DNA of 62,520 bases, the filler included, from Collodictyon triciliatum (lineage: Eukaryota), in NCBI GenBank assembly GCA_043381765.1. It is 18 parts of 18 records of this genome, joined end to end, with 100 filler letters (N's around TTAATTAATTAA, not from the genome) between each part and the next. Parts side by side here need not be neighbours in the genome. Positions count along the whole stretch, not along the records: positions 27,742 to 31,324 come from JBHJMP010007111.1; 17 more parts are not named here. The stretch is one strand, 5' to 3'. The position numbers and the translations under genes were made by a program. The notes below the pieces were generated by a model. That model saw nothing but the letters and a program-made list of their open reading frames with translations, did not search any database and was not told the DNA's origin. Shown here in pieces: positions 28,824 to 30,840 of the stretch (position 1 is its first letter; each line of letters opens with the position of its first letter).

Positions 28824-30770
28824 ATGAAGAAAAGAAAACGTCTTGAGTTTGAGAATCTAAAGTCCGTAAACCCAGACAACAGAAATTTGAAAACATCTCA
28901 AGTCGATTGTAAAGAATGTGAGTGACTATGAAAAAATCAACGATACGGCTTTATTGTGTCATAATTTGGTTACTGACACTTATCTGTTTGCAAGATGGTA
29001 CATATTGAAATCACAACAGCTCCCAACAATCGATGAAAGGTTTTTTCTTTGTACGCTTTAAAGACTGTCGAAAAAGCTTCACAAGATATACCCGCATTTT
29101 TTTTTTTTTAAAAAAAAACCAGAAATGAGTGATGACATGATGACTTTTTATCTCAATGATTTTCGATTCCTTTTGTCCCGAGAAGAATGCTTTCCGTTGG
29201 TTAGACTGTCTCGTGTATTACCGTACTTGACGAAGCAAATGTTCACAGCTTATCATGATAACATTAAGGAACATTTTGTAAAGAGGCTATTGCGCTTTAT
29301 AAATCAAACAGTTCCTAAAGATGAGAATATTACGGAAGATACTAAAAAGGCAGAGTTACGAAAGTTAAAAAAAAAGCCATCTTCAATAATCTCATAATAC
29401 CGGAACAACACAAAGAATGGGCTACAACGTATTTGCATCATATCATTCCCAGCGATATTGTAAATAGTATCGAATATGACGTCAAAGTCAATCCAAAGAA
29501 GTACGCACCATGCCTGATTTACATGAATCGCATTTTTGAGGACATTGGAACCAAAAACTGTTTCAACCAATCTCTATGAGAACTGCCAATATACCATGTC
29601 ATATTACTCTAGATACTGCATGTTTGATGGTTCTATTAGTATCATCTGGAAAAACATCATTACTGAATAATATATTGGATGCAAAGAGACACTATGAGAT
29701 AAGTTCTTTGAAATGAAGAAAGGGAGTTTTCATCAAACAGACTACAATTTTAAATACATGATACAAACAGACGGCTTGGCGGTGTCATTGTTATTTAAAA
29801 AGAAAGGTATTTCAAATTCAAATTCCAAATTTAATCAAAAACCCAAGAATATGTTTATATATATGAACTTTCCGAAGAGCAGTTATCTTTATTAGAGACA
29901 AAAAAAAATAGTTTGAGTGGATGCAGGCAAGTTTAATTTGGTTTACATAGTGGATGAGACAGGTAAGAAATTACGTTACACGGCACACCAAACAAGACAT
30001 GATAGCAAATCTCTTAAAAATCACAAAATACTCTTGCGCGAGAAAAAAAGAAAAGTACAATGCTTCAGGGATATGCATAGCAACAGATTTACAAAGTGTT
30101 GTTTTATTTGGTCCCATGACTTTTGAAGAGAATCAGCAGTTTGAGACATCAAGAGCATCTTTAATCGATTTAGAGACAGAACAGAGTAAACATAATTCAT
30201 GCACGATCGATTATGAAAAGTTTCGAAAATATGTATCTATGAAATCAAGATACCAGTAGAATTTTCCAGATTTTATGAACACGTAACTTTTCGAAAGATG
30301 AGATGGAGACAGTATGTTAATACAAAAAGATGTGAACCATTGTCTATGGACCGAATCGAAAAGACATTTGGTAATGATGTTATACTGGCGTATGGAGGCT
30401 GGAGCAGAAAATCTCAGATGAACCGTTTTAAGCCAAAAATCGGAAGAGTATTACGAAAAATACAATCCAAACGTTTTGAAACAGTGTATATGAATTAAAA
30501 ACCTCCAAGATGTGTTGCAACTGCGAAAAAGAACTGGAATATATGACACCGAAAGGAAATACAAAAAAATGTATAGATGTCTCATATTTAAAGAATGCCA
30601 TCGCTCAGAAAGCAAACAAAGTGTATTCTTGACAAGGGACTTTAACAGCGCCATAAATATACTCAAGAAAGGTCTTTTAATCCTACAAAATATGCATACA
30701 CCTTCCTCTAAAAAATCAGGCTTTTGGGTCTTTCCCTGGCAGCCTTCACCACTACACGACCATAGTGAAA
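28824..30770 (+). pseudogene. Fanzor1, frameshifted; ~640 aa when reconstructed, with an N-terminal NLS-like MKKRKR
   Basis: Same motifs as copy 1: IEYDVKVNPKKYAPCLIYMN, IPCHITLDT, FKYMIQTDGLAVSLLF, V*VDAGKFNLVY, AYGGWS, KTSKMCCNC, TRDFNSAINI. Confidence 0.9.
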
Positions 30771-30840
30771 AAAGTGGTGAGACCTTGGATACTAGCGAAC
30801 CAAGTTTACTAATCGAAAGATTGGTATAGCCCTTCTAGTA
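30722..30840 (+). ncRNA. Candidate Fanzor omegaRNA scaffold, copy 2
   Basis: Stems at 30746-30753/30773-30780, 30784-30788/30800-30804 and 30807-30814/30819-30826, the last capped by a GAAA tetraloop. Confidence 0.65.

Follow-up and report, generated by a model that had tools for sequence, protein, structure and literature searches.

Fanzor proteins are already known as RNA-guided nucleases, and 3655 unique Fanzor sequences have been catalogued (PMC10530073). In the Fanzor1 protein SpuFz1, the residues D383, E541 and D606 coordinate two Mg ions (PMC10432273). Fanzor and TnpB proteins conform to the motif D-X(125,275)-[TS]-[TS]-X-X-[C4 zinc finger]-X(5,50)-RD (PMC3627910); the RuvC-I motif reads DPG in Fanzors 1 and 2, and a RuvC-II glutamate six residues ahead of the first CxxC is common to Fanzors generally and occurs also in some TnpBs (PMC10711439). 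Fanzor2 is described as nearer to TnpB and as linked to IS607, an association of Fanzors with Mariner/Tc1 has been noted (both PMC10530073), and Fanzor1 genes carried in mariner elements of giant viruses, the PGv-1-like elements, have been described (PMC3627910). By the scheme given for the family, an omegaRNA is expected at the right end of the element (PMC10432273, PMC10530073). Here we describe two Fanzor1 loci in a stretch of 62,520 nucleotides, hereafter the window, from Collodictyon triciliatum (NCBI GenBank assembly GCA_043381765.1). They are very probably paralogous pseudogenes in neutral decay, two copies of a unit of about 3 kb that once encoded a Fanzor1 protein of about 645 residues.

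The window is a chain of contigs of about 3.6 kb with runs of N between them, and the two Fanzor1 units lie on unlinked pieces, copy 2 on 27742-31324 and copy 1 on 16682-20268. A blastn alignment of 27808-30862 (+) to 20267-17275 (-) has 3085 columns, 84.8% of them identical, and contains 348 mismatches and 89 gap openings; the same method found no third copy within the window. The limits of the units were set by eye on the alignment of copy 1 with copy 2, at approximately 27845/20235 and 30855/17283. On the right, the homology breaks off abruptly near 30855/17283. On the left, the border is hidden, both contigs running through (TAA)n-type microsatellites to their ends. The left limit of copy 2 (whole unit 27845-30855, +) is therefore a minimum, with a (TAA)n/(TAAA)n microsatellite reaching the contig end at 27742, and copy 1 (whole unit 17283-20235, -) is bordered on its upstream side by a microsatellite that continues up to the contig end at 20268. 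These microsatellites are probably the cause both of the assembly break and of the missing left end of the unit.

According to the alignments, the copy 2 unit consists of a non-coding 5' module, the Fanzor1 pseudogene and a 3' tail of about 90 nt. The 5' module (27845-28823, +) is about 980 nt long and includes a CT-rich microsatellite at about 27950-28105. Its conservation between the copies equals that of the coding part; in copy 2, no trace of a coding sequence was recognised in the module, and its open reading frames have no Pfam match. When the module was compared with the loci of 77 relatives, no nucleotide match was found outside the coding part. The distance from the stop codon to the right end of the unit, about 90 nt in the window, is 20-164 nt in 53 of the 77 loci of relatives, so that the architecture of the window unit fits the family.

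Searching with the longest piece of copy 1 (154 residues) yielded two proteins, P0001 (648 residues, intact) and P0002 (644 residues). Lesions were counted in our own frameshift-aware alignment to P0001 as the guide, and the count was repeated with P0002 and P0003. Against P0001, copy 2 (28824-30756) is identical at 382 of 629 aligned residues, with 13 frameshifts and three in-frame stops, and copy 1 (19299-17382) at 378 of 627, with four frameshifts and five stops, the guide being about 60% identical to both. With P0003 and P0002, 12-13 frameshifts and 1-3 stops are counted in copy 2, and 3-4 frameshifts and 4-5 stops in copy 1. Each copy contains a single, broken frame of about 645 codons, and the alignment requires no introns in either.

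In the guide-protein alignment, the copy 2 pseudogene extends over 28824-30765 (+), from the ATG at 28824, which begins the sequence MKKRKR, to the TAG at 30763-30765. Its RuvC-I motif, VDAG (29917-29928), has a TGA stop immediately upstream; the catalytic Asp codon is kept, and DPG has become DAG. The glutamate codon of RuvC-II is retained in YELKTSK (30489-30509), in the frame of the open reading frame 30480-30632. The first zinc pair follows as CCNC (30513-30524), the two motifs together spanning 30489-30524; the second pair is damaged (FKEC, from C587F), and RuvC-III is present as RDFNSA (30635-30652). The copy 1 pseudogene, delimited in the same way, extends over 17370-19302 (-) and ends in a TGA stop at 17370-17372; its start codon has changed from ATG to ACG at 19302-19300. 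On the same strand are VGVDAG of RuvC-I (18213-18230), GDWS (17736-17747) and a block of C-terminal motifs (17484-17648), in which NEFRTSK (17628-17648) is followed by YCNR (17613-17624) in the place of the first CxxC, which is lost through C562Y and C565R, and then by CKEC (17538-17549) and RDFISA (17484-17501).

Both copies are pseudogenes, and neither is able to make the protein now. The dN/dS ratio between them is 0.89, and the 271 nucleotide differences in the 626 shared codons are distributed as 82, 94 and 95 over the codon positions. All eight in-frame stops across the two copies arose by substitution, and zinc ligands have been lost from both, two from copy 1 and one from copy 2. The eight substitution stops and the intact tubulin frame of 509 codons elsewhere in the window argue for real decay, not poor assembly.

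The assignment of the window genes to Fanzor1 is sound, as comparison with proteins of known structure shows. The 154-residue piece of copy 1 itself matches PpFz1 (9cf0, Parasitella) with an E-value of 6.5e-7. In PDB searches with P0001, the solved Fanzor1 proteins were matched with E-values of 2.1e-28 (GtFz1), 2.7e-24 (PpFz1) and 3.7e-23 (SpuFz1). A profile of 45 family sequences matches SpuFz1 with an E-value of 1.5e-105; the match extends over profile positions 6-603 and takes in the long N-terminal half. The same profile matches PpFz1 and GtFz1 with 2.8e-102 and 6e-78, respectively. The only PDB matches of the profile other than Fanzor1 are to LaTranC, at 3e-4, and in the PDB searches neither P0001 nor the profile matched a Fanzor2 or TnpB chain at an E-value of 0.001.

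The residues D364, E555 and D604 (numbering of P0001) are invariant in 45 of 45 sequences and align with residues 777, 935 and 1000 of the SpuFz1 chain, an MBP fusion, which correspond to D383, E541 and D606. P0001 also fits the motif of PMC3627910, with D364, T558-S559-K-L-C562, the further zinc ligands C565, C587 and C590, and R603-D604; both window copies retain the D, TS and RD codons, and each is short of part of the C4 zinc finger. The glutamate is spaced as E555-FRTSKL-C562 in P0001, as NEFRTSKMY in copy 1, with the cysteine changed to tyrosine, and as YELKTSKMC in copy 2. D364-P365-G366 is invariant in a six-sequence alignment (A2), as are D364 and P365 in the 45-sequence alignment (A1). 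In the two window copies the motif is DAG, where DPG is described for Fanzors; this would fit with decay, or with a change that had occurred in a common source already relaxed.

Compared with Fanzor1 as solved for SpuFz1, GtFz1 and PpFz1 (PDB 8gkh, 9cer and 9cf0), the window family agrees in the end-to-end match of its profile, in the positions of the D-E-D residues, in the RD motif and in the glutamate six residues before the C4 zinc finger. It also agrees in being intronless, in its basic N-terminus and in a frame that ends near the right end of the unit. It differs in that the window copies are dead and read DAG instead of DPG; the identity to the solved proteins is low, strong E-values coming from the profile only, and the guide RNA, target motif and cleavage activity of this lineage are putative. 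With TnpB and the OMEGA systems of IS200/IS605 and IS607, the family shares a RuvC nuclease with a zinc finger and the expectation of a guide RNA from the right end of the element, overlapping the 3' end of the gene (PMC10432273). In contrast to TnpB, the window protein is much longer and has a Fanzor1-type N-terminal half, its setting is eukaryotic or giant-viral, and its relatives ride on another class of transposon. Fanzor2, for example the mimivirus and mollusc enzymes, has in common with it the DPG motif and the relocated glutamate, which are general to Fanzors (PMC10711439), whereas no Fanzor2 structure was matched at an E-value of 0.001.

An earlier note on this DNA had described two homologous segments of about 3 kb on different contigs, with intronless, frameshifted frames for a Fanzor1-type RuvC nuclease. 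The blastn alignment at 84.8% identity bears this out, with limits very near the coordinates given there, and the guide-protein alignments recover the frames with their RuvC motifs where the note had placed them. The type of nuclease is supported by the match of the copy 1 piece to PpFz1 and by P0001 and the profile, both of which match strongly only on Fanzor1 structures. The end proposed for copy 2, at 30840, needs correction: the coding frame ends at 30765, and the unit at about 30855. The relocated glutamate, which the note took as typical of Fanzor1, is present in both copies and in P0001, but it is not confined to Fanzor1, being found across Fanzors and also in some TnpBs (PMC10711439). 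The motif losses it assigned to each copy are as listed, except that copy 2 also keeps the glutamate codon, in YELKTSK, and that its second zinc pair is damaged.

The note had also proposed that the lesions of the two copies largely complement each other and that the ancestral nuclease can largely be reconstructed from them. The complementation is partial. Many lesions are indeed private, and each of the four zinc ligands is intact in at least one copy. However, in the linker of about 30 codons before RuvC-I the frame is switched (+2, then +1) in both copies, at 29813-29901 (+) in copy 2 and at the same position, 18237-18325 (-), in copy 1. This pair of frame switches is seen with three of three guides in copy 2 and with two of three in copy 1, where the alignment to the third guide, P0002, instead reads through a stop at 18243; the unshifted frame of the linker runs into a stop in both copies. 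Three of 35 family-conserved positions carry identical substitutions in both copies, namely P365A (which turns DPG into DAG), E391D and R388T. Since the frame-switch pair and these three substitutions are found in both, the common source of the copies was probably already broken or under relaxed constraint. The proposal that the ancestor can largely be reconstructed from the two copies therefore has only partial support, and merging them would not restore the family consensus. Such a reconstruction is unneeded, as intact relatives exist (P0001 and others).

The lineage belongs to a large, known Fanzor1 radiation that is rich in giant viruses. A search with P0001 returned 3147 representative proteins at an E-value of 0.001 or below, 537 of them at 1e-30 or better. 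The ten clusters that were looked up come from metagenome-type sources, and the named ones are called 'hypothetical protein'. Look-alike clusters in the Atlas are 92-100% viral, with Nucleocytoviricota as the commonest phylum, and carry PF26935 (DUF8286) and partly PF07282. A search of IMG/VR with the six-protein alignment gave 214 candidate stretches; 123 of these encode a relative, and many belong to GVMAG bins. Seventy-six IMG/VR loci were kept, and 77 loci in total (L001-L077) were used in the element comparisons. Over the full length of P0001, identity reaches 44-47% in the best viral loci. A metagenome scan with P0001 found a single distant locus, L001, at 21% identity; viral scans with P0001 alone, and with a 33-base stretch of the window, gave no match. 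The gene neighbouring the Fanzor frame of L004 encodes an mRNA capping enzyme.

Around the viral Fanzor frame, elements of 2.25-4.7 kb bounded by terminal inverted repeats (TIRs) of 15-39 bp are present at 53 of the 77 loci, and a divergently placed transposase of 343 residues, DDE_3/HTH and of the IS630/Tc1-mariner kind, at 23 of them. The elements occur in two sizes, about 2.3-2.45 kb with the Fanzor only and 3.3-4.7 kb with the DDE_3/HTH transposase. Their TIR sequence is strongly conserved (TTTACACCYTTG..AAAACGCCGA, with the core TA-CACC...GGTG-TA); examples are L004:3627-3659 with 6917-6949 and L002:3637-3668 with 6921-6952, and the TIR of L001 is nearly identical to the others despite the 21% protein identity of this locus to P0001. 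By their architecture, the viral loci match the described Fanzor1-in-mariner elements of giant viruses (PMC3627910), and they agree with the noted association with Mariner/Tc1 (PMC10530073). The window units resemble these elements in their layout, the frame being preceded by a 5' module and followed, up to the right end, by a short tail, and have among them their nearest labelled relatives, with up to 47% identity to P0001. Unlike them, the window units are devoid of the conserved viral TIR, of the transposase and of the viral 3' RNA motif described below, and their 5' module is without similarity to the viral loci.

In a FastTree phylogeny of 120 rows, from which representatives beyond P0070 or outside 560-760 residues, viral frames below 560 residues and exact duplicates were left out, copies 1 and 2 and P0001 form a fully supported clade. 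This clade is placed among virus-rich clades with a support of 88, not starred; in a quick IQ-TREE run on 45 chosen rows it lies in a polytomy, with a support of 86, again not starred. Descent of the window clade from a viral copy is possible. P0179, an NCBI-sourced protein of 136 residues, is a frameshifted fragment. Its initial 35 residues correspond to a different frame of copy 1 from that of the remainder, which contains the motifs DEFRPSK, CCSC, CKEC and RDFNSAN and shows 76% identity to copy 1 over a length of 78 residues. With P0179, there is at least one further degenerate copy of the window subfamily in public data.

The viral relatives have a conserved structured RNA across the 3' end of the Fanzor frame and the tail, for example at L009:2701-2782. 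Two helices covary in 29 distinct sequences (alignment A4): 91% of cells are paired, versus 31-50% when the partners are slid, both-sided changes occur in 11 of 18 pairs, and none of 500 shuffles reaches the observed values. This RNA is a candidate for the omegaRNA scaffold of the viral Fanzor1 clade. A covariance model made from it, R1, has 50 matches over L001-L077 and none in L002-L008, the nearest viral relatives of the window; the tails of L002, L004 and L005 fold well, with z-scores from -2.8 to -4.9. On the window, R1 gave 12 matches with E-values of 0.18-9.8, of which the best (0.18) lies in a simple repeat and one, at 6.2, on a T/A run of copy 2. The 3' end of the frame and the tail of copy 2 (30715-30855, +) are predicted to form three hairpins, with a fold z-score of -2.2, and the same three hairpins are predicted for copy 1 (17283-17422, -), with a z-score of -3.1. 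A stretch of the window tail, TTCACCACT...AGTGG..GAGACC, was likened by eye to the viral hairpin; R1 gives no support to this likeness, and it is not relied on. A stretch of 33 nt that is identical in the two tails was considered as special conservation and discarded, being only the eighth longest run, with seven longer.

Judged by homology, the ancestral protein, with its basic MKKRKR N-terminus, would have been imported into the nucleus. It would have carried a guide RNA derived by transcription of the 3' end of the gene itself and the end of the element, and would have cut guide-complementary DNA beside a short motif. The cut would have been made by the D-E-D site, its glutamate located six residues ahead of the C4 zinc finger. 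The common source was most likely broken before it was copied, so that the unit would have spread or duplicated without needing its own nuclease. While the homology, the lesions, the neutral divergence and the lesions in common are observed directly in the alignments, we infer that the nuclease was guided by RNA, where its omegaRNA lies and how the unit was copied.

Several results weigh against this account. The search for TIRs gave only microsatellite matches and chance seeds of 7-9 nt, and no inverted repeat connects the 5' module with the right end. No transposase remnant was detected by tblastn, nor with a hidden Markov model of 14 transposases on the six-frame translated window (best E-value 4), and no target duplication was found at either copy. 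As TIRs, target duplication and transposase were not found, the window units are mobile only putatively; their left terminus may be located outside the contigs. The placement of an omegaRNA at the right end of the window units would follow from the family scheme; R1 has no match at the 3' end of either copy, a miss that is uninformative because R1 also misses L002-L008, and two window sequences cannot show covariation. The convergence of the D-E-D residues in a RuvC fold is predicted from the alignment to the solved SpuFz1 structure. Pfam and NCBIfam gave nothing meaningful on the pieces of open reading frame in the window, and Pfam gave no match on P0001 or P0002, whose sole family label is the precomputed PF26935 (DUF8286 in the Atlas listing); in the literature searched, no paper mentions DUF8286 or PF26935. 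Nine of the 13 frameshifts of copy 2 adjoin runs of at least five A or T, as judged by eye, and a few of them could be sequencing errors. Near both borders of both copies, a short inverted match of 6-7 nt, AAGGGG/CCCCTT, with TAA-rich sequence outside it, was seen by eye at approximately 27848-27855 with 30829-30836 and 20232-20225 with 17309-17302; it was considered as a TIR and dismissed, as a match so short is well within chance.

Other explanations of the two loci were weighed. It is hardly credible that the gene is alive and that assembly errors, short introns or programmed frameshifts produce the appearance of lesions. Many frameshifts of copy 2 are close to homopolymer runs and a GT...AG pair, seen by eye, brackets the shifted linker, but the two copies have eight stops made by substitution, the start codon of copy 1 and several zinc ligands are gone, and the dN/dS of 0.89 goes with differences that are even over the codon positions. 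The tubulin frame of the same assembly is intact, and the candidate intron was ruled out, as it encodes the family-conserved LS.EQL..L..KKIVG in the shifted frame. Just as improbable is a Fanzor2, or a prokaryotic TnpB (a contaminant or of the IS607 type), in the place of a Fanzor1: the family profile covers SpuFz1 end to end, its long N-terminal half included, the PDB searches matched no Fanzor2 or TnpB chain at an E-value of 0.001, the protein is about 645 residues long, and the contigs are rich in microsatellites, with a eukaryotic tubulin in the window. The DPG motif and the glutamate before the zinc finger, which would suit this alternative, are common to Fanzor2 and some TnpBs (PMC10711439).

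A segmental duplication of a stretch with one dead Fanzor1 insertion, instead of two transpositions, is an alternative that we consider rather unlikely. It would account for the lesions and conserved-site substitutions that the copies have in common, for a divergence that is near-wholly neutral and for the lack of TIRs, target duplication and transposase in or around them. However, the homology on the right side ends sharply about 90 nt past the stop codon, as the element does in relatives, and P0179, from another public record, suggests more than one duplication; the left border, where both contigs end in microsatellites, is out of sight. We regard it as improbable that the copies are endogenised giant-virus DNA with a viral Fanzor1 element, and not a host transposon family. 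Relatives in 123 of 214 IMG/VR stretches, many in GVMAG bins, the capping enzyme beside the Fanzor of L004 and the Atlas look-alike clusters, 92-100% viral and with Nucleocytoviricota as the leading phylum, speak for such an origin, and a viral origin has been suggested for the Hydra element HMa-1 (PMC3627910). Against this, the short flanks of the copies are microsatellites with no recognisable viral gene, the copies are without viral TIR and transposase, and neither tree puts the clade with P0001 firmly within a viral clade, the support values of 88 and 86 being unstarred. For the two decaying pseudogene copies that we favour, a more specific history can be suggested, very tentatively and as an unlikely one: the units may be a host-resident, transposase-less offshoot of the giant-virus Fanzor1/mariner radiation, with new termini and a new 5' module of about 1 kb, copied after the nuclease broke. 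If this were so, it would document that genes have passed between giant viruses and a eukaryote host, and that the carrier element spreads independently of Fanzor activity.

The relics matter little by themselves, and intact members of the same family are plentiful. The main use of the result is in annotation, the loci being a dead Fanzor1 and not a gene; it is also a small data point that such units remain in a eukaryote genome, and are still copied there, once the nuclease is dead. Better leads for genome editing and for mechanism are the intact relatives and the conserved 3' RNA in giant-virus contigs.

Microsatellites in the contigs of the Fanzor1 units are found at 27742-27845, 27950-28105, 30920-31020, 31180-31324 and 20000-20268; towards the contig ends they are of the (TAA)n/(TAAA)n type or have CT-rich units, (AAAAAAC)n or AG-rich units. 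When the two contigs and the DNA that separates them were searched against Rfam, the only matches were miRNA-like, below threshold and located in simple repeats. A scan for sigma-70 promoters and terminators was set aside, as it does not apply to eukaryote DNA. In a search of sequencing runs, the best share was 0.26; the others were small, and mostly from freshwater metagenomes. A frame at 20370-20792 (+), starting with MKPFQLTSLKYEGG...LPTKEVWIP, resembles the N-terminus of a protein of the methylthioribose-1-phosphate isomerase type; Pfam gave no match for it at an E-value of 0.001. Long frames with Pfam domains are present on other unlinked contigs, at 61117-62304 (-) with an FkbM-type methyltransferase domain (Methyltransf_21) and at 37795-38454 (+) with leucine-rich repeats. 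The tubulin frame, at 47277-48806 (-), is unbroken over its 509 codons, apparently intronless, and contains the Tubulin and Tubulin_C domains; together with the microsatellites, it indicates a eukaryotic source for the DNA.

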